The notes beneath the pieces are model-generated. The model had not been told where the DNA came from, did not search any database, and saw only the letters and a list, made by a program, of their open reading frames with translations. Shown one piece after another: positions 4,799-58,590 of a stretch of 64,000 nt of DNA. Position numbers and translations under genes: made by a program. Each line of letters opens with the position of its first letter. Position 1 is the first letter of the stretch. Source of the stretch: an uncultured virus (IMG/VR IMGVR_UViG_2902076858_000006) (lineage: Duplodnaviria > Heunggongvirae > Uroviricota > Caudoviricetes); IMG/VR virus record IMGVR_UViG_2902076858_000006; one strand, written 5' to 3'.

Positions 4799-4823
4799 GG
4801 CTGTTTTGTGCCAGGAGCGGACG
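4799..4823 (-). repeat. Cargo-end palindrome, GGCAC type
   Basis: Minus strand CGTCCGCTCCTGGCACAAAACAGCC. Confidence 0.75.
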
Positions 4824-4967
4824 CTCAACTGTTAACTTTTTAGCATTAAACTGCGTGCTCGTGGACGCCTCAGGAATTCTGCCCTGAGGTGTATATGGCT
4901 ATTCACGATGTTTCCATTCAATCTCAGATAACTACAGCACACATGAAACCAAGTTAAGGAAATACGT

Positions 4968-5432
4968 ATGGAAAATGATACGCTGGGCGGTAAGGAACCT
5001 CAGGAAAAGATTTTAACCTGACTCGAAATCTATGAGGGGAAACCCTTTATTGAGCGGTATGGTCTATTTATGAGTAAGGCGCAATAGCTAAAGTTTGCCC
5101 TAAAAAAAATCATCGAATCGCTCCTTGGCTTTAACCTTTCCAAAGGGAAATTAGAAATATTGACGCTAGGCCAGACTCGCGTTGTTTTTGAAAAACTGGG
5201 GTTACGTGCAGGCTATAATGCCTACCTCAAATCATTTAAAAATCAGCGCAACACTATGGTGCATGAGTTCCTGGCTAATTATGCGATCACCCAGCGTTTT
5301 CTAGAAGGAGCCGCACTTATTCGCCCATTTGAACGTGAATTAGCTAATGCTTGCATGGGACTGGAACAGTTGATCATCCTTTGTGACTTTATCAACGGTG
5401 CCGGTGACATTAGCAGCTTGGCTAGAGCCTAA
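4968..5432 (+). pseudogene. HEPN-like protein pseudogene with two in-frame stops
   Basis: AAGGA SD, ATG 4968, TGA 5019 and TAG 5085 in frame with ORF 5160-5432; RNTMVH (RX4H) motif. Confidence 0.65.
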
Positions 5433-5740
5433 AGTCCCTTAAAATAATGAAGCATATCAGTTTTCATTTTTCCTAACTGGGCTGAACCGTAACTATGTTT
5501 AGTCTTTTCTGAGACAGACTAACTTCATGAGATATAACGTTTCATACAGACTTATATGTCTGAATGAATGATGGTTAATATATGATACTAAGTCGTAAAG
5601 AAAACATAGTAAGTAGAGGTTCAGATGTGTTGCATCATTCTTATACGCAGTGTATCACTTTATATTCTATTTAATCTTTTCATTTTCTATATGTTGGCCT
5701 TATAATATCAAAACAATTTCAATAAAAGTGAGGGGAGAGT

Positions 5741-7099
5741 ATGAGATTTATTGAATCAATAAATGAAAGAATTAAAAAATCAAATGATTTAATTAAGGCA
5801 GATGTAATAATGACAAATGAAATATTAGGCCCAGACAAAAACCTGCCTTATATTTTAAAGGACTTCATATACTCAAATGAAAAATTCAACTTTTCTTTAA
5901 TTAATAATGTGGAAAATTCTTTTTTTGAAATTGAACTTTTTAAATTCATCAAAGAGGAACGTGGTATTGAAAAAGATTTATTCGGGCGATGGGATTTCAG
6001 GACATCATTATATCATAACTTCAATTATCACCTTATGGGTTTAGACTATCGCATTGAGGTTTCCAGAAAAGAAGCAGTAATACAAAATGATAGTATCTTA
6101 AACGATTTAAGACAATTAGGCCTTAAGGATGCTGAAGTTATTGATTTAGAGTTTTTCGAGTTCCCTCAATGGGATAAGCAATTTGATATTTCAAGAAAAA
6201 TAAGCCAAATTGACTTTGGTGAAATAACTAATACAGAGTTGCGTGACTACTTTAAAGATAACTTTCTACATGTAGAAAAAGAAAAAATACATCTAAAAAT
6301 AATAAAATGCAACGACACAACTGGTAAGAAAATTTATTTGCCATTATATGTGGGTATAGGAACCAATGAGCCTTTTGGGTTGGCAATTAAAAAAGAAGGG
6401 GATAAGTCACGTTGGTATAAATTATCTCTCGATTCTGATGCCCCGTATATTGAAGAAGGTAAAGTAAAAACATTAAGTCACAATAATAACACAATAGCCA
6501 ATATCCTTGTAGATTCAAGTTTGATAGATAATGACAATTCATGGAATCAAAAATCAAAAACCATGATTATGACAGCAATAAATAAAAACCACCAAAATAC
6601 TGAAAATGGTAATAACAACTTACTAAAGGGCTATGTTAAGTTCAACTATAAATCTACAAGTAATGAAATTGTCATTGAAAAACCGGTTTCAAGTTTAGAA
6701 CCATACTATGATAAAAAAAATGTTGTACGCATGGATATATGGAAAGAATACATTAATGGGAAAGACTTTTTTTCAGAAATAAATGGATTGCTAGAAAGGT
6801 CTCAAGAAGAATATGAGGTTTTTTTTGAGCTTTTTAATTGTCCATACAAGATAATATCTGAGATTGGGACTAAAAAGGTTGTTGAATTAATCGGGCGAAA
6901 ATATAATAAAATACTAAAAACTCAGGATTTTAAAATGCTTCCCAATTGCGTTGAGCATGGTAATATAAATACAGTCGCTGGTGACTTATATATGTTGGGT
7001 ATCGATTCCAATAGAAATAGAGTATCCTCCCTTTTAATCCAGTTATTGATATTGACAGAACGATTTGAGCAACATATAGATGGCAATTTCACAGTTTAA
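5741..7099 (+). CDS. 452-aa hypothetical cargo protein
   Basis: Long AT-rich ORF with GAGGGGAG SD and downstream hairpin at ~7181-7197; no family recognised. Confidence 0.8.
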   Translation: MRFIESINERIKKSNDLIKADVIMTNEILGPDKNLPYILKDFIYSNEKFNFSLINNVENSFFEIELFKFIKEERGIEKDLFGRWDFRTSLYHNFNYHLMGLDYRIEVSRKEAVIQNDSILNDLRQLGLKDAEVIDLEFFEFPQWDKQFDISRKISQIDFGEITNTELRDYFKDNFLHVEKEKIHLKIIKCNDTTGKKIYLPLYVGIGTNEPFGLAIKKEGDKSRWYKLSLDSDAPYIEEGKVKTLSHNNNTIANILVDSSLIDNDNSWNQKSKTMIMTAINKNHQNTENGNNNLLKGYVKFNYKSTSNEIVIEKPVSSLEPYYDKKNVVRMDIWKEYINGKDFFSEINGLLERSQEEYEVFFELFNCPYKIISEIGTKKVVELIGRKYNKILKTQDFKMLPNCVEHGNINTVAGDLYMLGIDSNRNRVSSLLIQLLILTERFEQHIDGNFTV

Positions 7100-7383
7100 C
7101 CAATATAAGAAATATTTGATAATTAAATACAAACTCACTTCAAGTAGAAATTCAATGCAAAAAAGATTGCTTTAAATTTTCCCCCTTGTAAGGGGGGCTA
7201 TCCTACACCATTAAACACAATCTGGTACCAGAGCAATGATGGTTGATACAAGAAAATTAGAATATTTGCACGTAAGCTACTCAAGTTCGTTCGGTATGAA
7301 TATTGAGGTAAATATCCATAGTGTGGGAGGAGTGGTATAGCGAGGTTGGTAAAGCTTTTATCAGAAATTTGAACAACTACGAA

Positions 7384-7408
7384 CTTCCGCTCTTCGCTCA
7401 AGCCAGAC
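7384..7408 (+). repeat. Cargo-end palindrome, CGCTC type
   Basis: CTTCCGCTCTTCGCTCAAGCCAGAC. Confidence 0.75.
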
Positions 7409-7473
7409 TGTCAGGCGTAGTTGTGTTCTATCCACAAAACCTGTCAGTTCAAGCCTGAGCTAGTACACATTAA

Positions 7474-7839
7474 TCAACCAAAAATATTGCTTATCCCTGA
7501 ATATTGAGTGCTGACGTAATCATATAAGTTATTCATAGGAGATGAATCGCGTTGACTTTGCCATGCAATTTGGTTGTACCTAAGTAGAGACAATCTGATT
7601 CTCTCAACATTATAAAATGTATCGTGATCTCCATAGTATTGAGGAACTCTATATGAGAATAAGTAGAAATTAGCTCCATTTGGCAATGTAGATGATTGAT
7701 AGCACGAGGTAATAGTAAATTCACTTCTTGAGTGAAGAATGCTCGGTATCTCATAGGATAGAGACCAGATTATTTTATTTTCTATAGTCTCTCTGAAAAG
7801 CTGGTTTATGAATGTTACTTCATCAAAATCATTATTCAT
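7474..7839 (-). CDS. 121-aa hypothetical protein with start codon inside a heptamer repeat
   Basis: ORF directly downstream of 7872-8347. Confidence 0.65.
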   Translation of the reverse strand: MNNDFDEVTFINQLFRETIENKIIWSLSYEIPSILHSRSEFTITSCYQSSTLPNGANFYLFSYRVPQYYGDHDTFYNVERIRLSLLRYNQIAWQSQRDSSPMNNLYDYVSTQYSGISNIFG

Positions 7840-7864
7840 TATTCATTATTCATTATTCATTATT
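7830..7864. repeat. (CATTATT)5 tandem repeat
   Basis: Five exact heptamer copies. Confidence 0.95.
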
Positions 7865-7871
7865 ATCCCCT

Positions 7872-8347
7872 TTATACCTTACGTGTGCTCATATCATGTT
7901 CGTTTTTTATAGCTTCATGAAACTTAGTTAAAATTTGATAATAAGACCATGTTGCTTCATAAGTTAAGTTATCTTTGCTTTCTATATTTTTTCCGATCTT
8001 TTTTATCTCAGATCTAAATAACTCGATATGTGCATATATGTATGGTTCATGCTCTTTTTTTTGCAGACAGCTACATACCCATTACATTCTTGTATGAGTT
8101 TCCAAAACTTATATTTTATGTCAGGAGAATTAACCTTGAATTTATCTGGAGATGCTGACTTGATTTCATCACTAAATATTTTATATGTATTTGTGATATT
8201 GCCCACTATATAGCCGCTACCCGCTTTTTTATTGTAAACCTTTGAAAAATTATAAGTTTGGTATAATATAACTAATGTTATTAAAATTCCCGCAAAGGTA
8301 ACCAGTAAACCTAAGTTTGTAACCCACAAAGGCCAAATTTCATTCAT
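7872..8347 (-). pseudogene. N-terminal TM hypothetical protein frameshifted at an A8 run (8055-8062)
   Basis: One extra A extends the 114-aa ORF to 158 aa, ending at 7872 where its stop abuts the next SD. Confidence 0.7.
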
Positions 8348-8627
8348 CCTATTTACTCCTATTTTAGCAAAAAAAGCCTAAGGCCCCAATGTGGTACTAA
8401 TCATAACGGAGAGAAGCGAAAGCGTCTTCCTATCTTTGTTTTTATCCATGATGGTGTGTTTTGACTTAAAGAACGTCTTGTCCGCGGATTACATTTAAAT
8501 TATTATAATTCAATTGGTTAAGAGGGTGTATTGATTTCATATTGCGATACACATCTTATTTGATTCCGCGCCGGAATTTCCGAAAATCTAAAACGTGGAA
8601 TTTCACATTGGGACATAGAGTAATTTT

Positions 8628-8822
8628 TTAACTAAAATATAAAATTACCCATAACAAAAGGCACAACAAAAGACCAAGAGGCAGACCCAACAATATAGAG
8701 TAAACCCTACTACGAGGCTCTACATTACGCAGGCAATATCTACAAACTTTAGCCTCATTAGGTATCTCACTTAAACAGTGTGGGCAGTCAATGAATTCAT
8801 CATCATACTCATCATTAGAATA
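8628..8822 (-). pseudogene. Zinc-ribbon plus C-terminal TM small protein lacking a start codon
   Basis: SNDEYDDEFIDCPHCLSEIPNEAKVCRYCLRNVE...LLGLPLGLLLCLLLWVILYFS*; GAGG SD then AT-TCT. Confidence 0.65.
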
Positions 8823-8955
8823 TGGACCTCTTTAGCGTATTTATGAATAAGGTGTCTGAAGCTTAACTGTAAGAAAACTTATGCTAAGTACTTTTTTAAA
8901 CAATTTTAATCAGAGGAAAGTTTACTAACAGTTAATTTTACTGAACAGCGATATA

Positions 8956-8970
8956 TTCAGCGAGTATCGG
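8956..8970 (-). repeat. Degenerate cargo-end palindrome, CGCTC type
   Basis: Plus TTCAGCGAGTATCGG vs TTGAGCGAGTAGCGG at 54519 (13/15). Confidence 0.5.
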
Positions 8971-9017
8971 TTACCAATTCAGCATTGAGGAAAGACTATA
9001 TTGCCCTTACTAACTCT

Positions 9018-9839
9018 TCAGTCATCTTTATCTGCATGGTATTTCCCTGAACAATAGTAACACCGAGCTTCGACAATGCCATCTTCTATTAGCCAATAAT
9101 CCAGCTCCCCTCGAATTGCAGTAGTACCACATATATCACAGTAACCAGGTAATTCGTCACTTTCTTCGTTATCACAAAACGTGCAACAATAACCGGTAGA
9201 TGATTCATTATTAATTACTAATGTATAATGACCGCATTCAGGGCAATCGAAACGAATGGATTCTGCATCAAATGCCATGCAATCTACAGGATTTTCACGC
9301 TCTATTTTATCTGCTTTTTTTATTGCTGTCTGAACTGAAAATGCATATTCATCTGATAATATTTCAAAAGATTTCTTCATTTGTAACGGTATATGTCTTT
9401 CTACATCTAGTTCAGTGTGTTCATTCAGGAATTCCATTACAGATCTAAATAAGCGCCCTAAAGTAAATCTAACTTCAGCTACATCCATAGTAAACTTGTG
9501 ATGTTCTATATTATTTCTAAGTTTTTTAATCCACTCTAGATCTTTTTTTAAATCAGAAGATATCGTGTTGGAGTTCTCATTGTTAATAAAATTAATACAC
9601 TCCCATAGCCCAATTGTTTTGTCTTCATTTAATTTTTGTGAAAATGGATCTTTATAAATTAATAACTTATGTTTGGATGCAACATGATATTTAAAAATAA
9701 GTTCTAAGAAATGAGCCATATGAAGTACAGCGAATTTATACGATTTTGACTCGCCACACTCACCATCTTCAAATTTCGAAAGTGCTTCAGATAAACTATC
9801 TAAAGCGTTCTCTAATAAATCTAGTTCATGAGTCGACAT
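9018..9839 (-). CDS. HEPN-domain protein with C-terminal zinc ribbons
   Basis: ELIFK and RNNIEH (RX4H) motifs; CPEC, CTFC, CDIC, CYYC. Confidence 0.75.
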   Translation of the reverse strand: MSTHELDLLENALDSLSEALSKFEDGECGESKSYKFAVLHMAHFLELIFKYHVASKHKLLIYKDPFSQKLNEDKTIGLWECINFINNENSNTISSDLKKDLEWIKKLRNNIEHHKFTMDVAEVRFTLGRLFRSVMEFLNEHTELDVERHIPLQMKKSFEILSDEYAFSVQTAIKKADKIERENPVDCMAFDAESIRFDCPECGHYTLVINNESSTGYCCTFCDNEESDELPGYCDICGTTAIRGELDYWLIEDGIVEARCYYCSGKYHADKDD

Positions 9840-9895
9840 ATATTTTCCTATAGTTATCCTAGATGATATTTTGCTTCAATAGTATTCTATGAAGT

Positions 9896-9911
9896 GTCCG
9901 ATTAAAGCACA
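9896..9911 (+). repeat. Degenerate cargo-end palindrome, GGCAC type
   Basis: GTCCGATTAAAGCACA vs GTCCGCTTCTGGCACA. Confidence 0.4.
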
Positions 9912-9972
9912 TCATGTTTCTGTTACCTAATACCGAGGAATTTAGAAAAGTATTGGTTTATGTGTAAGTGAT

Positions 9973-10617
9973 TTATTTTGCTGTTTTCATCGATTTTGAT
10001 ACTTTCGAAATAGTATGCCGTGAACAACCTAACAGGTTTTCTATCTGGCTATAGCTTTTTTTCTCTATCAGAAGACCTTCAATTTTTTGGTGTAATATCT
10101 TATTGATCGGACGGCCTTTATATTTCCCTTCTTGTTTTGCTTTTTGTACACCTTGTGCTTGACGGCGACGTCTATCTTCGTAATCCTTTCTCGCAACGGC
10201 TGCGAGCATGTCTAACATCATATTGTTAAGGGCAGCAAGCATTCGTTCTGTAAACTCATCAGTACGATTCATGAATTGATAGCTCGTTGGGAGATCTAAA
10301 GAAACAATCTTTAATCCTTTGTGTCCAATGAGATATTTTAATTTTTCCCAGTCATCTGTATTCAAGCGACTAATTCTATCCACCTGCTCAACTAAGATAA
10401 TATCACCTGGCATGGCCACATTGAGTAAGCGAAAGAGTTCAGGCCGATGAAGTTGTACTCCCGACTCGTTCTCTTCAAACCAGCAGGCAATTTGCAAGCC
10501 CATTCCTTCGACAAACTTCAACAGTTCATTTTTTGCTCTTGACGCATCCTGTTCATGAGATGATGCTCGAAGATACCCATAAATTCGCGTAGTTGTATTC
10601 ATTGATGCACTATACAT
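9973..10617 (-). CDS. Serine recombinase (resolvase family)
   Basis: YGYLRAS catalytic Ser, RPEL, DRISR, GRP and C-terminal HTH. Confidence 0.92.
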   Translation of the reverse strand: MYSASMNTTTRIYGYLRASSHEQDASRAKNELLKFVEGMGLQIACWFEENESGVQLHRPELFRLLNVAMPGDIILVEQVDRISRLNTDDWEKLKYLIGHKGLKIVSLDLPTSYQFMNRTDEFTERMLAALNNMMLDMLAAVARKDYEDRRRRQAQGVQKAKQEGKYKGRPINKILHQKIEGLLIEKKSYSQIENLLGCSRHTISKVSKSMKTAK

Positions 10618-10764: not shown

Positions 10765-10788
10765 GTCAGGTTTGTGCCAAAAGCAGAC
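10765..10788 (-). repeat. Cargo-end palindrome, GGCAC type
   Basis: Minus strand GTCTGCTTTTGGCACAAACCTGAC. Confidence 0.7.
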
Positions 10789-10954
10789 TTTAAGTTGTCC
10801 AAGAACAGCTCTCATATCTTGGCCTATTTATGTCGACCACCACTTCAGTGCCTGCAGGATTTAAGGGGACAACGAGCCTGCATGTGGACACAGGTATATC
10901 GGTGAGTTAATATCTTTAAGAGGTATCATTTGACAGTATCTTGAGGGACTTAGA

Positions 10955-12613
10955 GTGCGGGTTAAATCGATTAAGCTTACCAATTTCAAGAAATTCAAAG
11001 ATGAACATTTTGAATTCAACGATGACGTAAATATCTTTGTAGGTGATAACAACGCCGGTAAAAGTACTATTTTGGAAGCCCTGGAAATCGTATTGAATTA
11101 CAGCTATCGGGGCCGTCCCTTCAACAGCGAGTTTACGCCAGACATTTTTAATAAGGATGCAGTGCAGCTTTTTTTGGCTTCTGATAAATCGGCCATGCAC
11201 TTGCCTGTCTTGGCAATAGAGGCATTCATTGAGGGAGTGCCTGAATACCGGGGTACAAATAATTTCCTTAAAGCCGATGCTCAAGGTATCACTGTACTGG
11301 TGCGTTTTGATGACACGCTAAAGGATGTTTACGCCGAACACTTACTGACAAACCCGCACATTACGAGTATCCCGATCGAATTCTACAAGCTGGAATGGCT
11401 GGATTTCGGGTGGAATCCTGTTAAAGCCGTAGCGAAGAAATTCAGGGCGTTATACATCGACCCAACTCGTATCCACCCCACTCTAGGTAAGAATCAGTAT
11501 ATCTCTACCATACTTAATACCGCTTTAAAGAAAGAGGAGCTGGTTAAGCTGACCCTCAATTATCGTGAGAATCAGCAGGTTTTTAACAACTCAGGTGAGG
11601 TCAGGACAGTCAACACCGGTTTGGATACGGACCACTTGATCACAGAAAAAAAGCTGTCCATTGCCGCAAGCACTTTACCAGCGGGATCTATTCAGACCAG
11701 CCTTCAACTTGAAGTAGATGATGTCCCTTTCCAGTTCATTGGCAAGGGTGAGCAGAGTAATGTGCAGATTAAGCTCGCGATTCAGAACAAATCGAAGGAT
11801 ATCGATTTGGTGATGATGGAGGAGCCCGAAAATCACCTTTCTCACACTAACCTCAATAAGCTGATTCACTACATTGAAAATCAGCGGGGTGACAAACAAC
11901 TCTTCCTTACCACTCACAGCTCGTATGTGCTCAACAAGCTGAGCATTGATAAAATCTGCCTGGTTCAGTCGGGATACAAACGTCTGCATAAGCTTGCCCC
12001 TGCAGTGGTCAAAACCTTAAAGCGCTTACCGGGCTATGACACATTGCGCGTAGCACTGTCGCACAAAGTCATCCTTGTCGAGGGACCGTCAGACGAGTTA
12101 GTACTCAAGAAGATTTACCACCGCAAGCACAACCGCCTGCCCGAGCAGGATGGTATTGATATCATCGTCGTGCGCGGAGTCGGGTTTGATACGTTCATCT
12201 CCGTAGGTATGGAAATTGGTACCCGGATAAACGTCCTCAGAGATAACGATGGCGACTATGAAGAAAACGTCGTGAAAGTGCGTACCGATTATGCAGCCTA
12301 TCCCAATATCAAACTTATCTCCTCTGCCAAAAATGAGGAGTTTTCGCTTGAACCCGCGATGATATATGCCAATGCAACCGACTTGGTTACGCTGGACGCT
12401 TTCGCCAAAGTGGTGTTATCGACACAGACGTTTAACCTCTACGATAAAGTAGTCGACTTAGATAAGCGACGCGACTTTCTGATCGACTGGTTTCGAAGCG
12501 TCCAGGGAAACGGTAAGGGCGCTCGCAAGGTCGATTCAGCTATCAAGCTGTTCGATTGCACTCTGAATTTCAGGTATCCACCTTTCCTCGATGAGGTGTT
12601 CGACTTTGCCTAA
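10955..12613 (+). CDS. gajA: OLD-family ABC ATPase/TOPRIM nuclease, Gabija GajA-like
   Basis: GDNNAGKST, MMEEPENHL, TTHS, LVEGPSDE, DND motifs; coupled to a UvrD-like gene. Confidence 0.85.
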   Translation: MRVKSIKLTNFKKFKDEHFEFNDDVNIFVGDNNAGKSTILEALEIVLNYSYRGRPFNSEFTPDIFNKDAVQLFLASDKSAMHLPVLAIEAFIEGVPEYRGTNNFLKADAQGITVLVRFDDTLKDVYAEHLLTNPHITSIPIEFYKLEWLDFGWNPVKAVAKKFRALYIDPTRIHPTLGKNQYISTILNTALKKEELVKLTLNYRENQQVFNNSGEVRTVNTGLDTDHLITEKKLSIAASTLPAGSIQTSLQLEVDDVPFQFIGKGEQSNVQIKLAIQNKSKDIDLVMMEEPENHLSHTNLNKLIHYIENQRGDKQLFLTTHSSYVLNKLSIDKICLVQSGYKRLHKLAPAVVKTLKRLPGYDTLRVALSHKVILVEGPSDELVLKKIYHRKHNRLPEQDGIDIIVVRGVGFDTFISVGMEIGTRINVLRDNDGDYEENVVKVRTDYAAYPNIKLISSAKNEEFSLEPAMIYANATDLVTLDAFAKVVLSTQTFNLYDKVVDLDKRRDFLIDWFRSVQGNGKGARKVDSAIKLFDCTLNFRYPPFLDEVFDFA

Positions 12614-13760
12614 TGAATTCTGGATTGCCGGTGCAGGATCAGGAAAAACCCAAAAAGTCATTGAGGATGCCATTGAAGTCATAAAGGCGGGCGGACGCGT
12701 ATTGGTCGTCACCTACACCATGAACAACCAGGCAGAGCTCCGTTCTCGCTTTGTGGAATTGTACGGCAAACACAGCGATGATTTTGTTGTGAAAGGCCTG
12801 TTTTCATTTTACCTAGAAGACTTAGTGAGACCTTATCAAACGGCCATGTTTCCAGATCGAATCACTTCTACAATGTTCACCGAGCATAACCCTCACCTGA
12901 TACCTGGTACGAGGAAATGGCATCCCAAAAGAGGGGAAAAAATTAATGGGGTGCTGAATCCTCTTCATTATCTGACGCCGTGCAAAACCAAAGCTTACAC
13001 AGGACTGCTGGCGAAGCTGGCAACAAGAATCTCCGCTTCAACAAAGAATGCCCCCGCTAGCAGATTGAAAGAGATTTATCAGAGGATCTTTTTTGATGAG
13101 GTTCAGGATTTGGTTGGATGGGATTTTGACGTTATCAAAGCACTCAGTAAGGCAATGCATAACTCTATTTGCTGTGTAGGCGATTTTCGTCAAACTATTT
13201 ACACGACCACGTTCGGCCACAAGGCACCGGAAACACCTGAGCAAAAGATTCAATACTTCAAAGACCTCAATTTTAGTCTGTTCTCGCTGGCGAAGAATCG
13301 CAGATGTATTCAGGAAATCTGCGATCTCGCGGATACCATTCATCCCGGTATTTATGAACAAACGCAATCAGAGGTGGGAGAAGTTCCTGCAGAAATGGCC
13401 CATCACTACGGCTGTTTTCTCATAAAACCATCTCAGGTGAACGATTATCTCGATATATTCAAACCTCAAGTTTTGCGATGGTCATCGCTCATGGGAAAAG
13501 GCTATTTGCCACCAAGTCTCACCTGTCACACCTTCGGCTCCTGTAAAGGTCTCGGTTTTGACCGCATACTAATTATTTCACCGGAGAAACATCTCAAGTA
13601 TCTGGGGGGCGACCTTGGCGTGTTCGATAGAGATAAAACGGAGGAATCTAGAAACAAGCTGTACGTGGCCATTACCCGAGCTCGTTACAGCCTGGCGTTT
13701 GTCGTTGAGGAAGAGCATCTTACAAATATAAAGCTGCCGCATTGGGTTAGACCTCTGTAA
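12606..13760 (+). CDS. gajB: UvrD-like helicase, Gabija GajB-like
   Basis: AGAGSGKT, DEVQD, VGDFRQTIY, LYVAITRAR; TTG start after GAGGTG overlaps gajA stop. Confidence 0.85.
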   Translation: MPNEFWIAGAGSGKTQKVIEDAIEVIKAGGRVLVVTYTMNNQAELRSRFVELYGKHSDDFVVKGLFSFYLEDLVRPYQTAMFPDRITSTMFTEHNPHLIPGTRKWHPKRGEKINGVLNPLHYLTPCKTKAYTGLLAKLATRISASTKNAPASRLKEIYQRIFFDEVQDLVGWDFDVIKALSKAMHNSICCVGDFRQTIYTTTFGHKAPETPEQKIQYFKDLNFSLFSLAKNRRCIQEICDLADTIHPGIYEQTQSEVGEVPAEMAHHYGCFLIKPSQVNDYLDIFKPQVLRWSSLMGKGYLPPSLTCHTFGSCKGLGFDRILIISPEKHLKYLGGDLGVFDRDKTEESRNKLYVAITRARYSLAFVVEEEHLTNIKLPHWVRPL

Positions 13761-13786
13761 GTCGATGCTAACGTCTAACCATTTAA

Positions 13787-13811
13787 CTTCCGCTTTTCGC
13801 TCAAAACAGCC
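13787..13811 (+). repeat. Cargo-end palindrome, CGCTC type
   Basis: CTTCCGCTTTTCGCTCAAAACAGCC. Confidence 0.78.
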
Positions 13812-13829
13812 CTTCGAATTCTGTATACG

Positions 13830-13854
13830 GACTGTTTAGTACCAGAAGCGATCG
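13830..13854 (-). repeat. Cargo-end palindrome, GGCAC-type variant
   Basis: Minus strand CGATCGCTTCTGGTACTAAACAGTC. Confidence 0.6.
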
Positions 13855-13905: not shown

Positions 13906-14820
13906 CTAGTGTTTTTCAAGTATTTCATAAGAGAACTCCACATGAGGATGAACATACTCTGCTGAATTAATTTCACACTGCACATTATCAATTGTTATAA
14001 CGCAGAGAACCCCATTGGTGTTTAGTAGAACAGTCTTTTGCCCTACACTCGGCGTAACAGCCCTACCAGGAGTTAAAAAAGAATCGACAGTCAGAGGATC
14101 AAAATTTGGAACTGTAATCAGTCCAACAGCTTTGAGTCCTTCATCTGTATAGAGGTAAACACTACTATATGAACATCCACTAAATGCTATTTTAAACTGG
14201 TACTCACCGTAACCAACTGTATAACATGCATGATCTCTGAATCGAAAAATCACGCTTCCCTTAAGCGCTGGATTGGCATAATGGGCAGGATCACGAAGAA
14301 TATCAATATTTTCAAGCCTTATGGCACGTTGGCGAACAACTGATAGTGGAATTGCATGCTTTTTATTTGCTGGCAGTCCTTCAATCCAACGCCAAATAGC
14401 ATCTATCTGTATAGAACCAGGAAACTCATTTCTATCGGGACTTGAGTTAAAATCAAAGCCCTTTGGATTATACTCCTCAAGCCAATTAGGTAATTTTCGC
14501 TCAGGATTTCGAACAAAGATAACAGACAACCATGTGGCTGGCTTGGTTGTAAAAGCGTCTTTTATCCATTTATTCTCGATACCAACACCTGAGTTCGGTT
14601 TATTATTAGCTCGTTCGACATAGTTTTCGTCAACAATCAACAGTACATGATTCGTTGCCACAACCTCTTGCATGAAACCATTTAAACTTGAACCATAATT
14701 AACAGATTCATCGATTTTAACCGTATAACCAATAAGGTCGAGATGACTTGCGATTGTTCTAACCCATTCCCTATGGATATCAGAAGTCCAAGCATACGAA
14801 ATAAACAGATCGGTTTTCAT
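13906..14820 (-). CDS. TIR/SEFIR-domain protein with beta-rich C-terminal domain
   Basis: LFISYAW..H.EWV..L....G..V..D; GVGIE candidate catalytic Glu. Confidence 0.8.
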   Translation of the reverse strand: MKTDLFISYAWTSDIHREWVRTIASHLDLIGYTVKIDESVNYGSSLNGFMQEVVATNHVLLIVDENYVERANNKPNSGVGIENKWIKDAFTTKPATWLSVIFVRNPERKLPNWLEEYNPKGFDFNSSPDRNEFPGSIQIDAIWRWIEGLPANKKHAIPLSVVRQRAIRLENIDILRDPAHYANPALKGSVIFRFRDHACYTVGYGEYQFKIAFSGCSYSSVYLYTDEGLKAVGLITVPNFDPLTVDSFLTPGRAVTPSVGQKTVLLNTNGVLCVITIDNVQCEINSAEYVHPHVEFSYEILEKH

Positions 14821-14972: not shown

Positions 14973-14996
14973 ATTTGCTCCTCGTTCAAAACCATC
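14973..14996 (+). repeat. Degenerate cargo-end palindrome, CGCTC type
   Basis: ATTTGCTCCTCGTTCAAAACCATC. Confidence 0.5.
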
Positions 14997-48254: not shown

Positions 48255-48267
48255 TTCGCAAAGACCT

Positions 48268-52574: not shown

Positions 52575-52600
52575 ATCAGCTTTGAGCGAAGAGCGAACAT
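52575..52600 (-). repeat. Cargo-end palindrome, CGCTC type
   Basis: Minus strand ATGTTCGCTCTTCGCTCAAAGCTGAT. Confidence 0.7.
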
Positions 52601-53290: not shown

Positions 53291-54256
53291 TTAACGCCAG
53301 CGTTCTGTCGCCCAGGCGACCTGCTGTTGTGCGTCGTGAAAAGTCCAAGCCACGAAGCGACTGATTTTTTGCCCCTGCGCCATTTCAATGGTACGGACTT
53401 CGGCCGCACCCACCAGCTTCAAGGCGTGATAAATCGAAGGCAAGGTAGTGCTTTTAGAAATCAACGAGGTGAACCACAGGCAGTTTTGCGCCAGGCTAAC
53501 GCTCTCCTCTACCATTTTACGCACAAAGGCTTCTTCACCGCCTTCACACCATAGCTCTTTATTTTTGCCGCCAAAGTTATGTACCGGCGTGTCGGCTACT
53601 TCGCCTTTACCCAGTTTGTGCAGTTTGCGGCGGGTGCTGGCTTGCGCTTCCTGTTCAGAGCTGTGGAACGGTGGATTACACAGTATGGCATCAAATTTCT
53701 CCGCCACGCCGATGATGCCGTTCAAAATACATTCGGGGTGTTTTTGTAAACGCAGGCGCACGCCGTTTCTCAGTGTCGGATTCATCTCCACGATCATTTT
53801 GGCCGAATTGAGCGATATCGGATTAATCTCCGAACCGGTAAAACGCCAGCCGTATTCACGCAGGCCAATAATCGGATAAATACAGTTGGCACCAACACCC
53901 ACATCAAGGATCGCCACGCCTTTACCGCGAGGGAACTCACCGCCGTTGCTGGTCGCCAGCAGGTCGGCCAGATGGTGTAAATAGTCGGCACGCCCGGGGA
54001 TCGGCGGGCACAGATAATCGGCGGGAATGTCCCAGTGTTCAATGCCATAAAAATGTTGCAGTAATGCACGGTTGAGCATTTTAACCGCCGCAGGATCGGC
54101 AAAATCTATCGAGATGTCGCCCCAAGCGTTCGGCTTGATGAACGGCTCCAGTGCGGGGCAACTAGCGATCAGCGCCGGGAAATCATAGCGTGAACGATGA
54201 CGGTTACGCGGGTGCAAGCCGCTTTTCTGCTGCAGGAAGGTTTTCTTTTTTTCCAC
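53291..54256 (-). CDS. rlmF: 23S rRNA m6A1618 methyltransferase RlmF
   Basis: LHPRNRH..YDF, LCPPIPGRADY, DVGVGANCIYP, CNPPFH, MAQGQKISRF; GTG start at 54256. Confidence 0.93.
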   Translation of the reverse strand: MEKKKTFLQQKSGLHPRNRHRSRYDFPALIASCPALEPFIKPNAWGDISIDFADPAAVKMLNRALLQHFYGIEHWDIPADYLCPPIPGRADYLHHLADLLATSNGGEFPRGKGVAILDVGVGANCIYPIIGLREYGWRFTGSEINPISLNSAKMIVEMNPTLRNGVRLRLQKHPECILNGIIGVAEKFDAILCNPPFHSSEQEAQASTRRKLHKLGKGEVADTPVHNFGGKNKELWCEGGEEAFVRKMVEESVSLAQNCLWFTSLISKSTTLPSIYHALKLVGAAEVRTIEMAQGQKISRFVAWTFHDAQQQVAWATERWR

Positions 54257-54300
54257 CGTGAAAGGTTCTCTTAAAGGTATTTCTGACGCGTACGATACCA

Positions 54301-54495
54301 TATACCCTATAGCTTTCAAGTTGCAGCTAACAGCTCGGGATGAAACCGTATTAAGCCTGCATTCAGAGCTTATGCCGGAATGTCCTGCTCTTTATACATA
54401 ACGCAATTCAAGATGCAGGAAGGCGGCAAGGGAAGATAGACAGGGAACATACATCAGTTTGTGACCTGGCTGAGTGCGGCCAACGAACCTGCCCA
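54301..54495 (+). repeat. ERIC/IRU-like fragments (54301-54330 and 54393-54495)
   Basis: TATACCC..TTCAAGTTGCAG and TTCAAGATGCAGGAAGGCGGCAAG..GTGAC..GGCCAACG. Confidence 0.7.
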
Positions 54496-54511: not shown

Positions 54512-54536
54512 GGCTGTTTTGAGCGAGTAGCGGACG
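54512..54536 (-). repeat. Cargo-end palindrome, CGCTC type
   Basis: Minus strand CGTCCGCTACTCGCTCAAAACAGCC. Confidence 0.78.
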
Positions 54537-54679: not shown

Positions 54680-57600
54680 CTATGTATCTGAGCCAAACAT
54701 AGAGCCCCGCCTTGTTATTTTATAATAAGTGGGATTTTCTTCATCCACCTCAAAAGCAGAGAAGAAGTGGTTATCTCTTAATGCTGTTAATAAACTTTGA
54801 TTAGTTGAATCAACTTCAATTTTAGGTTTGCCTCGCCCCAAAATTTTACTGAACTCCGATAAACCAAGCAGATCAAGATACTCTTTGCAAGTCGTCTTAC
54901 TCAAATCCTTACCCGGCAACAAAGCGATTAGCAGTGCTATTTTATTCTGTATATTCAGTCCCTCTGCGACAAACAGGTTTTTTAGTAACGGTTCAGAAAC
55001 ATCATTAGGGCTTGCTATCAATGCTGATATATCCTGTATTGCTCGACTCAAGATGAGCGACTGAGTAGAGGTTCCCCAAGTTTTATAAGATGACGTTAAG
55101 ATTAGAAGTTCATCTGGTTTAAAATTATTTTCTAAAATATAGTCATTAACGACCTGATGGTAATTCTTACCATGAATAGCCAACGGTGTTTTAACAAACT
55201 CGAGTAGCTTAAATTTCAAATCATCATCAACTTCCCAAGAAAGTATTGATATAGCCTCATCCAAAATAAAGTTATCAATCGTCATTAATTCAACGTATGC
55301 CCTGATATTCTTATCAATATAATAGGAAAGGTGCTCCGAATAGTTATCTCGTATGAAATTAAGTGGAGAAATACTCATACGAATAATATTTTTATCCACT
55401 AATATTTTGAACTTATCACCTGCAATATTACTAGCGCTAAAAGAGGTCTTATAAATAAGGTTTAGTGAACAAATTAATTTTTCATATTTATCATTTGATA
55501 AATCATTACAGATAACAATCGACTTAAATAATTTATCTTTAAGCTCATTATCAATGTTAATATTTTGAAAATTCAGCTCTGCATCAGTTCTATTGATAAA
55601 TTCGATAAGTGAGTCATCCAGTCCATCAACATGTTCAAAATAAGAGACAATATTTTCCTCGGAGCAAACGGCTCTATCTTTATCCAACAAAGATGACCAT
55701 AAGGATTCGCTCTCAACCTCACTCAGAGAAGTCACTAAAATTTGCAAAGAGTTTATATACTGGCCTTTTTGTTCATCAGATATTTTCTCATTATTAAGAA
55801 CGGATAAAACAATGGCTTCATCATCCAAGATTGAACCATCACAACTAGATAAAACCATATCCAGATAGTCACTAATATGGTTATTAACATAACTAGCCAA
55901 GGGAGAATCAGGCTGTGACATCACTAGTGTATAGTTCTTATGGCGAATATCATCTTCACTGTTAAGCGTGTAAACCTTACTCAGCATTAAGCTCAGGTTG
56001 GCAAAATTAATATCATAAAGTGAATGCTGATAAACCGCATCAAAGAGTACTTTATTTGCGTTTTCAAATTTAATACTGACAAAAGAGACGTTAAGCAACT
56101 TAAAACCACTAATTAACTTGTCAACCTTCGGCTCTGATATTGCTAAATAATCCGCCGAATTCGAGAGGTAATCAGTCAAACAATTATCAATGTTAATCGC
56201 CTCAATGTCGTTACTGGCAGAATAATAAAATGTGCCTATAGAGTAGCGTCTAACCCAATCAGCAGAAAATTCACTCTCTGTCAGCGCATAAGAAAAGAAC
56301 TCAGGCCACTGTGTATTTAATCGATTAATGAAGCCTGGCTGAGCCCTCTCAGTTTCAAAGTAGCCGCGAATAAACTCAACTCTTCTATCTTTTCTTAGTT
56401 GTTTGAATAAACGTTTTATTAAGTTTACTTGGGCTGGCGTTTGAAGCAGATAAGCTAATAGATCAAAATTAAGCGCCTCTTCCTGTTCAAAATCAACTTC
56501 TCGAAGGCGGGCAACCACCAGCTTAGGGTTCTTGAGTTGATAAGTGAACTCTTTGCCTTTTTGATCGGTAATGCTGCGTAAAAACATTTTATCAATTCGA
56601 CTCAGGCTATTTTCATAAAAATAGGTCATATAGTCGGCATAGGTTTCATCAATATAGCCATCACGTATAAGGTATTTAAGCAAGTCAAAATACTCACTAC
56701 TTTTTATTTCATTAAAATCTCTTTTTTCTCCAATTTCATTGATATAGGTGAGCTTAAATATTTCATCAATGTTTTCTCTTGTTATTATTTCTTTAAGTTT
56801 TTTATTCCTAGAATAAACCAAACGTTCTCTTGACCTTGATATAATCTCATTGATTTCTTCTATTTTCCCATTAATTTTATTTTCAACGCTTTCTTTTCTC
56901 GCCGCCCTTCTCTTTTCTATATCAGCTTTCTCAGCCTGATGATAGTAAGAGTTATTATATTTAGACAGTTCCTTTTCATATATAGTATCAACCTCCTGAC
57001 TAGAATTGAGTATTTCATCATTGATTACCTCAATCTCTTTTTTTCTATCACTAATATCTTTTTCTATTTCTTTTATTTCTCTTATAATAAGATTGTCCTT
57101 TTCACTAAATAAGGCAAAAACCATACCTTGATTAAGTTGCAACTCACTAAAATCTCGTGGAAAGATATTTTTATAGGCAATAATGGCCAACATTTTATTA
57201 CAGTCAAGTTCTGTCGTATTTAATTTATTATAATAAATTTGAAATTCATTATAAATATTCTTCAATATTCTCATGTCATCAATATATAGCGACATCCCTT
57301 GTAGAAATCGTTCATTGAACAACTTGAGAATACCCCCATCATCAAAATGTGAGATAAACTGATCATAAGAGTTAGAACTATCAACAACAGGAATAACTGG
57401 AATGATATAATCAAAGAATTTCGTTCTATCCTTCGAAATGAAGATATCATCACGAAGCAAGTAAATAAAACGTAACGTCGATTTCTTGTGCCCTGCTAGG
57501 GTCCGTTGAATATTAACTAGCCTATTCACCTCATGAAGACGTTCAAAGATATGATTACTATTAAAACGGTCCATATCTTCAAAAATAATAGCATCAGCAT

Positions 57601-58309
57601 CAACGTTCTCAAAAAGGTATAATACTTCATTTAAATACCGATCAAAATAAGACTCTTCACTCTCTTCAAAAATCTCTATTTCATTACCCTGTACATTTAT
57701 CTTTTTAAAGACATTACGATTCTTTTGGGTTTTTATTAGTTTATAAACAAAGATAAAAGACAGGATAGTAGCTATAAAACCGCTAATTAAAAGCGTATCG
57801 TGTCTTGTCGATAATGTTAGTAGTGTCTTTAAAAAACCATCAGATAAAAGTGAAACAAACTCACCCCACTTATTAAATAGAGTGATATGCAGTACCGTTG
57901 CGATAAATAACACCGTGAAGATAGTATTTATCACAATGTTGCTCATTTTTATTTTTTTCTTTACTTTAAAATGCGTCTGGGGAATATCATCAGCATTAAT
58001 TTGGTGAATTAACTGGTTAAGAATTTTACCTTCTAACGCTGTTTCGCTTATGGCTTTACTAGGTTCATTAGTTTCAGCTTCCTCCGTCGCTCTGAAATGG
58101 GCAAGTGAAATATGAACAAACTTTATATTCGAATGACTTTTCTTATATGATTCGACAAGGCTACTTTTTCCTGCGCTATATTGCCCTGATATTGCAATAT
58201 TTTTTAGATCGTCATTGGCAAAAACAAAATCTATCGCATTTTTATATATACCCAGCTCAACATCACTGAACGGCGTTAGCTTTTGAAATTTATAGCTGTC
58301 ATCACTCAT
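54680..58309 (-). CDS. YobI/KAP-like P-loop NTPase with two TM helices, 1209 aa
   Basis: NIAISGQYSAGKSS, two TMs inside the NTPase domain, IIFEDMDRF, RTKFFDYIIPVIP. Confidence 0.85.
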   Translation of the reverse strand: MSDDSYKFQKLTPFSDVELGIYKNAIDFVFANDDLKNIAISGQYSAGKSSLVESYKKSHSNIKFVHISLAHFRATEEAETNEPSKAISETALEGKILNQLIHQINADDIPQTHFKVKKKIKMSNIVINTIFTVLFIATVLHITLFNKWGEFVSLLSDGFLKTLLTLSTRHDTLLISGFIATILSFIFVYKLIKTQKNRNVFKKINVQGNEIEIFEESEESYFDRYLNEVLYLFENVDADAIIFEDMDRFNSNHIFERLHEVNRLVNIQRTLAGHKKSTLRFIYLLRDDIFISKDRTKFFDYIIPVIPVVDSSNSYDQFISHFDDGGILKLFNERFLQGMSLYIDDMRILKNIYNEFQIYYNKLNTTELDCNKMLAIIAYKNIFPRDFSELQLNQGMVFALFSEKDNLIIREIKEIEKDISDRKKEIEVINDEILNSSQEVDTIYEKELSKYNNSYYHQAEKADIEKRRAARKESVENKINGKIEEINEIISRSRERLVYSRNKKLKEIITRENIDEIFKLTYINEIGEKRDFNEIKSSEYFDLLKYLIRDGYIDETYADYMTYFYENSLSRIDKMFLRSITDQKGKEFTYQLKNPKLVVARLREVDFEQEEALNFDLLAYLLQTPAQVNLIKRLFKQLRKDRRVEFIRGYFETERAQPGFINRLNTQWPEFFSYALTESEFSADWVRRYSIGTFYYSASNDIEAINIDNCLTDYLSNSADYLAISEPKVDKLISGFKLLNVSFVSIKFENANKVLFDAVYQHSLYDINFANLSLMLSKVYTLNSEDDIRHKNYTLVMSQPDSPLASYVNNHISDYLDMVLSSCDGSILDDEAIVLSVLNNEKISDEQKGQYINSLQILVTSLSEVESESLWSSLLDKDRAVCSEENIVSYFEHVDGLDDSLIEFINRTDAELNFQNINIDNELKDKLFKSIVICNDLSNDKYEKLICSLNLIYKTSFSASNIAGDKFKILVDKNIIRMSISPLNFIRDNYSEHLSYYIDKNIRAYVELMTIDNFILDEAISILSWEVDDDLKFKLLEFVKTPLAIHGKNYHQVVNDYILENNFKPDELLILTSSYKTWGTSTQSLILSRAIQDISALIASPNDVSEPLLKNLFVAEGLNIQNKIALLIALLPGKDLSKTTCKEYLDLLGLSEFSKILGRGKPKIEVDSTNQSLLTALRDNHFFSAFEVDEENPTYYKITRRGSMFGSDT

Positions 58310-58565
58310 TGATATCCCTTCCCCATATTCACCGAGAGCTACTTCTCAGAGTTAATTAAACAAAATCATACAGATAAATGTTCGCCCTATTATAGCAGAA
58401 ACAATGCTAAAGATTAGTCAAAGCCTCGTTGTTTTTCTTCCCCTATCCATCTGATTTTACGTTAAATATTGCCTCTGCAACGTGTCCAATACTTTTGCCT
58501 TGGGCTTGTATTCCTTGATATTTACCAATAAAGCCATATGGATCAAGACATTTACGAAGTAGCAA

Positions 58566-58590
58566 CATCCGCTTCTGGCACAAAACCGAC
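58566..58590 (+). repeat. Cargo-end palindrome, GGCAC type
   Basis: CATCCGCTTCTGGCACAAAACCGAC. Confidence 0.78.

Follow-up and report, generated by a model that had tools for sequence, protein, structure and literature searches.

In P2-like phages, the interval between G and FI, known as the Z/fun hotspot, carries variable cargo, and the title of Nilsson, Karlsson and Haggard-Ljungquist (2004, Mol Biol Evol 21:1) proposes site-specific recombination. This G-to-FI cargo is bounded by the same site family as the cassettes described here, and the Z/fun inverted repeats appear to be the precedent, the idea itself being not wholly new. The present sites extend further, to lambdoid prophages, a CP4-like island, plasmids, and chromosomes, and they show the two-centre rule, junction doublets with linkers, and cargo unrelated to defence. 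The pdif modules of Acinetobacter plasmids (XerC/XerD) are likewise recombinase-less, carry short two-armed inverted sites, and are shuffled between replicons. However, the arms of the present sites do not resemble the XerC/XerD arms of the dif consensus, each cassette has two centre types, and neighbors are separated by two sites and a linker instead of one shared site. Integron cassettes (IntI, attC, attI, and CALIN arrays) are also promoter-poor, non-autonomous, and arrayed, and the layout of the 59-base element, in which a variable middle is flanked by two simple sites, resembles the junction doublets found here. Unlike in integrons, neither IntI nor RYYYAAC/GTTRRRY cores were found, each cassette has a site at both ends, no folding signal was detected, and exchange appears to map to the middle of a double-stranded site instead of one end of a folded strand. 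The sites thus fail the integron tests, in agreement with a preliminary description of this DNA that had set them apart from attC arrays. Heterospecific lox/FRT pairs also place two incompatible sites around a cassette, and two mutually incompatible flanking sites allow exchange in a fixed orientation without inversion or loss. These pairs are engineered and their enzyme is known, whereas the cassettes here are natural, such that the two are alike solely in working principle. Finally, REP/BIME elements with their RAYT share with the present sites an imperfect palindromic structure, at least two types, alternating orientation, fixed linkers, and tens of copies in some genomes.

We analyzed a window of 64,000 nt, i.e., the whole stretch of DNA presented here. 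The site is ~23 bp long and consists of a cargo-side arm (TCCGCT), a centre of 6–7 bp (TGGCAC in G-type or TCGCTC in C-type sites), and a backbone-side arm (AAAGCAGAC); the first N of the inner arm follows the cargo. In this host, the outer arm takes the variant form AAAACAGCC, which in the window poorly mirrors the inner arm and would thus be ill suited to a simple homodimer. The motif as first described had 8 matches at ≤2 mismatches against 0.75 expected, a count reached by none of 100 shuffled sequences, which places it well away from background frequency. With the 23-nt consensus TCCGCTNNTSGCWCAAARCAGNC, 8 sites were detected at ≤4 mismatches and none in the reversed window. All 8 lie in cargo DNA and none in the phage core at 17–50 kb, consistent with the recurrence in cargo regions noted previously. 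The two fixed mismatches between the centres of paired ends were also borne out by the sequence, although single-strand folding of the window sites and of the doublet was no better than that of shuffles (z from −0.5 to +0.6). The relevant features of the window are as follows:

4799..4821, minus strand: G-type site, centre TGGCAC, outer arm AAAACAGCC, left end of cassette 1; 0 mismatches to the consensus
4822..7385, plus strand: cargo of cassette 1, a 90-aa ORF and a 452-aa gene (5741–7099); copy in an E. coli island
7386..7408, plus strand: C-type site, centre TCGCTC, right end of cassette 1; 2 mismatches
9973..10617, minus strand: small serine recombinase of the resolvase type (Pfam Resolvase, 1.1e-21)
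10765..10787, minus strand: G-type site (GGCAC), left end of the Gabija cassette; 3 mismatches
10788..13788, plus strand: Gabija cargo, gajA (10955–12613) and gajB (12591–13760) (PADLOC GajA, 2.5e-204; GajB, 3.1e-122)
13789..13811, plus strand: C-type site (CGCTC), right end of the Gabija cassette; 0 mismatches
13812..13829, no strand: 18-bp linker joining the Gabija and TIR cassettes, starting with CTTC as most enterobacterial linkers do
13830..13852, minus strand: G-type variant site, centre GGTAC, on the 3' side of the TIR gene; 4 mismatches
13906..14820, minus strand: TIR/bSEFIR defence gene (Pfam TIR_2, 1e-7; PADLOC bSEFIR, 1.4e-40)
14974..14996, plus strand: degenerate C-type site, probably the worn right end of the TIR cassette; 5 mismatches
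52575..52597, minus strand: C-type site (CGCTC) beside chromosomal rlmF; 3 mismatches
54512..54534, minus strand: C-type site (CGCTC), 3'-side end of the Tmn/YobI cassette; 0 mismatches
54680..58309, minus strand: 1209-aa YobI-like P-loop NTPase (Pfam YobI-ATPase, 2.1e-123; PADLOC Tmn, 1.3e-69)
58568..58590, plus strand: G-type site (GGCAC), 5'-side end of the Tmn/YobI cassette, adjoining the end of prophage 2; 1 mismatch

Five inverted pairs had been proposed in this window. Three of these (4799/7386, 10765/13789, and 54512/58568) are confirmed, each combining the two subtypes in inverted orientation with TCCGCT on the cargo side. The pair around the TIR gene (13830/14974) is weak, its right member having 5 mismatches, a level at which the window yields 9 matches and the control 3; sites are found at both corresponding places around the E. 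coli copy of this gene, namely a variant site 53 bp 3' of the gene and a similarly worn copy upstream. The fifth pair was not retained, since neither 8956 nor 9896 was detected as a site even at 6 mismatches. The coordinates do place 18 bp between the ends of the Gabija and TIR cassettes, as reported. Site 52575, previously considered unpaired before rlmF, is not stray: along with 54512 it flanks the chromosomal rlmF, and a Providencia MAG carries the same two minus-strand C-type sites around this gene (L194, 5184 and 6999).

The cargoes of the confirmed cassettes were also found in unrelated backbones, with homology ending inside the sites or at their edge, as expected for the non-autonomous units initially suggested. 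The cargo of cassette 1, for which Pfam provided only a sub-threshold methyltransferase match and PADLOC none, is 92.7% identical to a unit of an E. coli CP4-like island (L001, 5935–8458) bounded by the same two site types; at the right end, identity with this copy stops within the outer arm. A metagenome contig carrying the same cassette matches from 4801 to 7400, ending between consensus positions 15 and 16. The Gabija cassette differs from contigs of three public runs at 8 positions in 3036 bp (99.7% identity); the match spans 10774 to 13809 in runs X5, X8, and X9, and starts at 10764 in run X1 and at 10765 on three E. coli plasmids. An Enterobacter MAG has a site-bounded unit (L203, 6999–11127) with 91.7% identity to the Tmn/YobI cargo, next to a different outer arm and flank. 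Conversely, the outer flank of site 54512 is shared with the Providencia MAG, and that of site 58568 with a viral contig (L085), next to different cargo or cargo-side DNA. Another metagenome contig joins 4784 directly to 10764, the outcome that would be expected from a deletion between the same-type sites 4799 and 10765.

The pairing of one subtype per end extends well beyond this window. Across phages, plasmids, and chromosomes, 74 of 77 unique site-bounded cargoes had one site of each type, as did 58 of 61 cargo clusters (binomial p = 3e-14), and among the viral loci listed all 60 neighboring inward-facing pairs were heterotypic. Centres are themselves bimodal, with TGGCAC or TCGCTC in 124 of 127 sites recovered by an arms-only search. 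The proposed placement of GGCAC on the 5' side of the gene was reduced to a weak bias (45 vs 26 of 74 cassettes, 3 being without an ORF). Arrays with abutting ends do recur, as 29 doublets with a linker of 4–25 bp, mostly 15–18 bp. Two earlier restrictions were not supported. Cargo is not specific to defence, as it extends to metabolic genes and includes transporters, regulators, reductases, and acetyltransferases, and sites are confined neither to prophage cargo nor to Enterobacterales. Carriers are mainly lambdoid and P2-like phages, along with the CP4-like island, plasmids, and chromosomes, and the same site is conserved across three classes of Proteobacteria. The 122 viral loci listed (802 kb) contained 213 sites against 0 in the control, and in one enterobacterial family sites were detected in 47 of 101 genomes (control, 0 of 101). 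Slots are reused, with different cargoes in the G-FI slot of P2 and in the rlmF-side slot of Providencia.

Comparisons between loci suggest where exchange occurs. When the backbone was shared and the cargo differed (656 pairs), the outer arm was 90–99% alike and similarity dropped to 39% and 48% at consensus positions 7 and 8. When the cargo was shared between different backbones (20 pairs, 10 of them enterobacterial), the inner arm and centre were 95–100% alike and differences started at positions 16–22. Judging from these alignments, the exchange point maps to the site centre, and the inner arm travels with the cargo while the outer arm usually stays with the backbone. The explanation we favor, with roughly even confidence, is that these are site-specific recombination sites with two incompatible centres, mediating an oriented cassette exchange by a putative recombinase. 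This enzyme, supplied in trans, would bind both arms and swap strands in the centre. Because the two centres differ at two positions, the ends of one cassette would be unable to recombine together. A like-with-like crossover between two DNA molecules would replace cargo or add to it, always in the same orientation, and between neighboring cassettes of an array it would delete or excise units. The 8-7-8 geometry would suit a tyrosine recombinase, although the central GC flanked by 12-bp half-sites would fit a small serine recombinase just as well. Cassettes would then be swappable packages, many of them carrying anti-phage defences, and the spread of the sites over phages, plasmids, and chromosomes suggests that this way of swapping genes is widespread.

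However, of the breakpoints derived from reads, half fall at the site's outer edge (4801, 13809, and 10764) and not at its centre, and consensus position 8 varies whichever kind of comparison is made. The breakpoint data are thus also compatible with ordinary recombination through the conserved 15-bp block. Under this alternative, the sites would be standard connectors, i.e., short homology arms for general or phage Rad52/Red-type recombination with no dedicated enzyme, and two different connectors would hold the orientation fixed. The relaxed recombination of Rad52-like phage proteins is established, the main carriers are lambdoid and P2-like phages, no recombinase for the sites was identified among the candidates checked, and the longest invariant block (positions 9–23) is where exchange maps. 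We nevertheless regard connectors as a minor possibility: 15–23 bp barely reaches, or falls short of, the length that efficient homologous exchange usually needs, cassettes are also found in plasmids and chromosomes without phage recombinases, and the dyad symmetry, the strict two-centre rule, and the conservation of the site over three classes of Proteobacteria would be left unexplained.

Two other models invoke mobile elements. If the paired sites were attL/attR hybrids of small integrative elements, with an outer|outer empty target and an inner|inner free element, the one-of-each rule and the inverted order would follow automatically. IMG/VR yielded no empty or hybrid sites, nor the predicted empty P2 slot (0 matches), and outer|outer and inner|inner arrangements had 0 matches and 2 loci, respectively, against more than 122 loci for the observed types. 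This model is thus largely refuted and hardly credible. Non-autonomous transposons, either MITE-like or IS-derived, whose terminal inverted repeats are recognized by a DDE or HUH transposase with its gene at another place, would account for inverted and similar ends with no movement gene inside, and for some copies having arrived in a new context with the complete site, outer arm included. Yet no target-site duplication was found in 77 cassettes (0–1 of 77 at any offset), the outer arm usually remains with the backbone, the ends differ by rule instead of matching, slots are reused with conserved flanks, and no HUH or RAYT gene was found in two site-rich genomes, all of which makes a transposon very improbable.

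Turning to the enzyme required for site-specific exchange, Pfam and cargo gene annotation support the earlier observation that no unit encodes a transposase: across cassettes, the cargo contained neither a recombinase nor a transposase, the sole exception being IS insertions in one unit. Action in trans had been proposed, but no such recombinase was identified among the candidates checked, and no protein family recurred beside the sites across 70 genome loci. The resolvase of the window lies 148 bp from site 10765, outside any confirmed cassette. A tblastn search over all fetched loci returned only 4 weak partial matches to it (31–36% identity), so that it is not recurrently linked to sites and was rejected as the enzyme. 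A large serine recombinase beside two Pantoea arrays was also rejected, as it occurs in only 6 of 101 genomes and is absent from five site-rich genomes. Integron integrase was set aside because no IntI was found, as were RAYT and HUH proteins given the result from the two site-rich genomes.

The dispersed-palindrome comparison becomes most relevant in some Alpha-, Beta-, and Gammaproteobacteria, in which 36–57 copies of the same palindrome per genome lie between housekeeping genes (four MAGs; control, 0–1). There, palindromes include further centre types, form either direct arrays or clusters of 2–3 in a 45–46 bp phase with conserved linkers, and flank petABC and other core genes, a pattern that resembles a dispersed repeat more than a set of cassettes. 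REP elements are bound by gyrase and also located at rearrangement junctions. By analogy, REP/BIME-like palindromes could serve for protein docking (e.g., of a topoisomerase or nucleoid protein) or mark transcript ends, and cassette borders would coincide with them since they focus illegitimate recombination. This appears unlikely: RAYT was not found in two of the site-rich genomes, Rfam had no match to the site, and one-of-each pairing is unexpected for a passive hotspot. The sites are also tied to the borders of acquired cassettes and, unlike REP/BIME elements, their copy number is very low in E. coli, whose chromosomes carry only 1–2 copies, with those examined bounding acquired cargo.

The motif that the preliminary description had placed at the ends of cargo and defence units is real and above chance, with eight matches in the window at ≤2 mismatches against 0.75 expected, and none of 100 shuffles reaching eight. 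With the 23-nt consensus TCCGCTNNTSGCWCAAARCAGNC, five, seven, and eight sites were found in the window at ≤2, ≤3, and ≤4 mismatches, respectively, and none in the reversed window. Looser thresholds swamped this signal, the window and its reversed control yielding 9 vs 3 matches at five mismatches and 17 vs 12 at six. The eight sites are:

4799, minus strand, site with centre GGCAC
7386, plus strand, site with centre CGCTC
10765, minus strand, site with centre GGCAC
13789, plus strand, site with centre CGCTC
13830, minus strand, site with centre GGTAC
52575, minus strand, site with centre CGCTC
54512, minus strand, site with centre CGCTC
58568, plus strand, site with centre GGCAC

As had been described, sites avoid the core phage genes: all eight lie in cargo DNA and none within the phage core (17–50 kb). 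The right end proposed for the TIR unit, at 14973, is detectable solely at five mismatches (9 in the window vs 3 in the control), and a further pair proposed at 8956 and 9896 could not be recovered at up to six mismatches. The sites are set among the following features:

1.2–2.8 kb, chromosomal genes lipocalin and DUF1722
3420, integrase fragment, after the lipocalin and DUF1722 genes
4.2–16.4 kb, cargo block at the tail-fibre end of a lambdoid prophage
9018–9839, 273-aa protein, PADLOC candidate PDC-S64 (4.5e-26) and Pfam DUF3644, between confirmed cassettes
10955–13760, GajA and GajB (PADLOC)
13906–14820, bSEFIR/TIR protein (PADLOC)
49655, repressor of the lambdoid prophage
50794, integrase of the lambdoid prophage
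53291–54319, rlmF, with the 1209-aa NTPase next and a second prophage's tail end after it
54680–58309, Tmn (PADLOC)

The same rlmF-side flank is also present in a Providencia MAG, and the window therefore probably derives from Providencia or a close relative.

The structure of a site was read from an alignment of 88 distinct exact copies (viral contigs, the window, and one E. coli locus). On the 5′ side of TCCGCT, the sequence is unlike in almost every copy, while on the 3′ side of CAG it is often conserved backbone; the DNA upstream of the P2 tail-sheath gene FI, for instance, was always found after a CGCTC-type site. Both N positions of the motif differ between copies with a common backbone. 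From this variability on the cargo side and conservation on the backbone side, we infer that a site consists of an inner arm facing the cargo, a centre, and an outer arm facing the backbone, the two arms being imperfect mirror images (GTCCGCT ... AGCAGAC). Searching these loci with the arms only returned 127 distinct sites vs none in the control, with centres TCGCTC (C-type) in 71, TGGCAC (G-type) in 53, and three single variants; the loci were retrieved with a pattern containing the centre, and partner sites alone provide the unbiased sample for these counts. At the window sites 4799, 13789, and 54512, and in a Providencia MAG locus, the usual outer arm AAAGCAGAC is replaced by AAAACAGCC, a backbone arm particular to this lineage and a poor mirror of the inner arm.

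The preliminary claim of one subtype at each end of a unit extends well beyond the window. In the 122 viral loci listed (802 kb, some overlapping on one contig), 213 sites were found at ≤3 mismatches and none in the control, and all 60 neighbouring pairs with facing inner arms were heterotypic, i.e., paired a G-type with a C-type site when the near variants GGTAC and CGCAC are counted. Across all loci and the window, 83 inward-facing pairs enclose 77 distinct cargoes of 0.3–6.6 kb, of which 74 are heterotypic; the other three all come from alphaproteobacterial MAGs. After similarity clustering, 58 of 61 cargo families are heterotypic (p = 3e-14 vs even chance). Cassettes also abut: the contact between the Gabija and TIR units noted in the preliminary description (13789/13830) is one of 29 doublets, in which a linker of 4–25 bp, mostly 15–18 bp, separates a C-type site from a G-type site lying next on the opposite strand; the linkers of enterobacterial doublets have a loose common consensus, CTTYAGC.CAGTTA. 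The proposed tie between gene polarity and site type holds as a bias and not as a rule: in 45 cassettes the longest ORF starts on the G-type side and points to the C-type end, and 26 show the opposite orientation. In single-strand folding, the window doublet reached −6.2 kcal/mol (z −0.52) and the window's sites did no better than shuffles, whereas one E. coli doublet folded better than shuffles (−14.4 kcal/mol, z −2.9); we accordingly read the sites as duplex DNA targets of a protein and not as hairpins. In several otherwise unlike cassettes (loci L038, L083, L012, L046, and L180), a conserved element of ~40 bp ending in GTTAGCAAYG adjoins the inner arm, and its reverse complement was found after the G-type site in several doublets.

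Copies of the window's cassettes in other contexts bear on where exchange may take place. A CP4-like island in an E. coli strain carries a copy of unit 1 (4799–7408) at 92.7% identity, bounded on one side by a G-type and on the other by a C-type site, and at its right end identity extends across the centre and ends in the outer arm; between this island and a relative, backbone homology stops 47 bp short of the site and is uninformative on an empty site. An Enterobacter MAG has the Tmn cassette at 91.7% identity, with both site types at its ends and a different outer arm and flank. The Gabija cassette was found in contigs of three public runs with three organism labels (8 differences over 3036 bp), the match extending from 10774 to 13809 with unlike DNA beyond both ends; these alternative flanks are common to all three runs, which accordingly represent one further context and not three. 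Three E. coli plasmids match the Gabija cassette starting at 10765, pieces of unit 1 in a metagenome run start at 4801 and end at 7400, and a contig of that run joins 4784 to 10764 with 15 other letters in between, i.e., an array variant without everything between the same-type sites 4799 and 10765. In consensus numbering, these breakpoints fall at positions 14–16 (7400 and 10774) or at the outer edge, positions 21–24 (4801, 13809, 10764, and 10765), and none falls inside cargo. All four runs examined consist of contigs, a form in which rare circles or junctions would not show; the highest share of the window's sampled words in any run is 0.43, and parts without cover carry no meaning.

Sites were also compared pairwise, position by position. 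Where two sites have like backbone flanks and unlike cargo (656 pairs), likeness is 90–99% at outer-arm positions and drops to 39% at position 7 and 48% at position 8. Among 20 pairs with like cargo and unlike backbone (10 enterobacterial, the other 10 MAG repeats with a conserved linker as their "cargo side"), likeness is 95–100% in the inner arm and centre and 80% at position 7, and differences begin from positions 16–22. Position 8 is variable in both sets. On these alignments, exchange maps to positions 8–15, the resolution being limited by identity within the site. The best account, which we consider about an even call, is that these are site-specific recombination sites with two incompatible centres, served in trans by an enzyme. 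The two centres would impose oriented cassette exchange between molecules, and the same sites would allow cassettes to be deleted or inserted within arrays, the recombining enzyme being supplied in trans. The main rival is ordinary recombination through the conserved block, which we regard as unlikely. Two E. coli chromosomes match 13732–13809 alone (78 bp at 94.9% identity, comprising the last 57 bp of the Gabija unit and the site) without any annotated feature, and this stretch may be the remnant of a lost Gabija cassette.

Beyond the window, a scan of one genome per species returned at least 127 matching stretches, where a rough estimate predicts ~35 by chance; hosts among the matches listed include Enterobacterales, Pseudoalteromonas, Nitrosomonadaceae, and many Hyphomicrobiales MAGs. 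In the GTDB family containing Pantoea, sites were found in 47 of 101 genomes, at up to 32 per genome, and the control gave none in all 101. The genome of Pantoea sp. C3 carries 49 sites at ≤1 mismatch, all on plasmid contigs C3 and C4 and none in the rest of the genome; its 391-kb plasmid, with ~1 site per 9.5 kb, looks as if it were built largely of these cassettes. Outside Enterobacterales, sites behave differently. On a Nitrosomonadaceae chromosome (G002), sites of one type, repeated in direct order, enclose single genes or small groups of genes (ankyrin, Sel1, and hypothetical proteins, but also petABC with a GST gene, PhoX, and DegP), and these runs are concentrated in a few chromosome regions. 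In alphaproteobacterial-type MAGs, palindromes occur between housekeeping genes in clusters of two or three with a 45–46 bp phase, with centres GGCAC, GGGGG, and GACCC and a linker common to different MAGs. This composite repeat, present at loci L133, L126, L154, and L159 and at many Hyphomicrobiales/Xanthobacteraceae MAG loci, has no Rfam match, and its sequence was found in no paper; a search of the window and six loci likewise gave no Rfam family. Among 401 random Pseudomonadota, arms-only counts were barely above control except in G002 (36 vs 1) and a handful of genomes (5–6 vs 0–2), and high palindrome counts are rare in this sample, the arms-only pattern being too loose for a phyletic test.

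This behaviour outside Enterobacterales keeps alive another rival reading, ranking next and a little less likely than ordinary recombination, in which a dispersed REP-like palindrome family merely focuses rearrangements. REP/BIME repeats occur in tens to hundreds of intergenic copies per genome; copies here number 36–57 in each of four MAGs (arm-matching palindromes, control 0–1), 1–2 in two E. coli chromosomes, and 0–32 in the 101 enterobacterial genomes. A RAYT gene flanked by repeats is also a REP feature, whereas no RAYT (PF01797, Y1 transposase) was found in genomes G002, G004, and G005, and it was not detected in two site-rich genomes; genome G003 has one clear PF01797 match, whose 3.4-kb locus is without sites.

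The sites were also compared with other known systems. In integrons, IntI lies beside the array and a single attC at the cassette 3′ end, whereas here each cassette has a site at both ends and no IntI was found among 82 cargo proteins, the flanks of four arrays, and five tyrosine recombinases near sites, all five far under the NCBIfam integron-integrase cut-offs. The attC core consensus is RYYYAAC ... GTTRRRY, and by inspection these cores were not seen in the aligned sites, which supports the distinction from integron attC arrays drawn in the preliminary description. An attC also folds as a single strand, a property on which the window doublet and the E. coli doublet gave the differing values above. 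The likeness to pdif modules lies in their inversely oriented bounding sites, here 77 inward-facing pairs, but pdif sites have an 11-6-11 structure with XerC and XerD arms, whereas TCCGCT and AGCAGA are separated by a 10-bp gap and are unlike dif arms as commonly given. TIR transposons and MITEs have target-site duplications and matching, co-moving terminal repeats, whereas duplications were found at 0–1 of 77 cassettes (five offsets, k = 3–8), ends differ in 74 of 77, and the outer arm follows the backbone. The inverted-repeat inserts of the P2 Z/fun region do show a likeness: in P2-like phages, the variable DNA between G and FI has these sites at its ends, the FI-side flank always having a C-type site, homology to 82 P2-like phage records stops at the site, and Wphi and L-413C carry sites at the G–FI slot. 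The window's own cassettes sit in other backbones. We also considered the sites as attL/attR hybrids, a reading that fails because the predicted empty attB (outer/outer, 0 loci) and free attP (inner/inner, 2 loci) are essentially absent from IMG/VR, where an empty P2 slot was likewise found at 0 loci.

Among the candidates examined in cargo, site neighbourhoods, and site-rich genomes, we found no recombinase acting on the sites. None of the 82 cargo proteins is a site-specific recombinase, and clustering of 830 ORFs from 70 genome loci returned just common families as recurrent neighbours (substrate-binding proteins, LysR, and MFS). The window's own resolvase (9973–10617) gave only four weak partial tblastn matches across all retrieved loci and was set aside as not recurrent. 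Xer-like recombinases near sites in two MAGs share only 30% identity, are unrelated beyond the family fold, and fall below all curated cut-offs. The flanks of four arrays contain one phage-type integrase, two large serine recombinases, and IS genes. In Pantoea dispersa (locus L202, 2687–4679), a 571-aa large serine recombinase lies exactly between the outer arms of two cassettes, in the usual position of the linker. Plasmid contigs in two further genomes from this family have homologues (46–57% identity) within 1.4–2.5 kb of sites; on a Pantoea plasmid the distance to an array is 1.4 kb, and an Ewingella homologue has no site within 1.5 kb. As the general enzyme, this recombinase was rejected: it is present in 6 of 101 genomes, one of them with 0 sites, does not track site counts, and was not found in five genomes with 10–15 sites.

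A 23-bp address at cassette edges makes testable the question of how defence systems are transferred between unrelated mobile elements. This address recurs in phages (P2-like and lambdoid), in islands, and in plasmids, and offers exact junctions to seek and a bait for the protein. Nilsson, Karlsson and Haggard-Ljungquist (2004), going by the title and a citing sentence in Rousset et al. (2022), proposed a site-specific mechanism for variable P2 loci; the Nilsson 2011 paper does not mention the repeats. On the movement of defence systems, Rousset et al. (2022) only speculate about cos ends. A 2026 NAR survey, covering P2 and P4 elements by the thousand, describes their hotspots as almost without transposable elements, considers homologous recombination between unrelated elements unlikely, and leaves the exchange mechanism open; the terms motif, palindrome, and inverted repeat do not occur in it. 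A literature word search found no description of the sites, and the literal site strings were found in no relevant paper searched. We tentatively suggest, at somewhat less than even confidence, a natural cassette-exchange system common to proteobacterial mobile elements and undescribed beyond P2, in which packages of any function carry two incompatible sites and a recombinase would swap, stack, or delete them in trans among phages, plasmids, islands, and chromosomes. Such a system would provide a mechanism for the rapid defence-system turnover that the 2026 survey calls unexplained, and its natural incompatible site pair could become a cassette-exchange tool if the enzyme is found. The present analysis contributes counts for the two-centre rule, a mapped interval of exchange, breakpoints of the window's cassettes at read level, non-defence cargo, a spread beyond Enterobacterales, and several failed enzyme candidates.

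Finally, site pairs delimit cargo genes as candidate defence or accessory systems. Many of the 82 cargo proteins surveyed are of defence type, including a CBASS synthase with a 4TM effector, TIR, Mrr, HEPN, Schlafen/AlbA, RelA/SpoT, a pAgo-associated nuclease, AAA_13, RES, and a DUF4011 helicase-nuclease. Accessory cargo includes MFS with LysR and ChaC, old yellow enzyme with a hydrolase and LysR, aldo-keto reductase with AraC, GNAT acetyltransferases, a short-chain dehydrogenase, and an LD-carboxypeptidase; IS insertions are present in one cargo unit. In the window, the 273-aa protein at 9018–9839 is probably a defence protein not yet characterised. The interval from the TIR unit to the tail genes of the prophage contains a 454-aa protein bearing AbiJ N-terminal domain 3 (15077–16441) and a Rap1a-like immunity protein (16860–17207), both without bounding sites.
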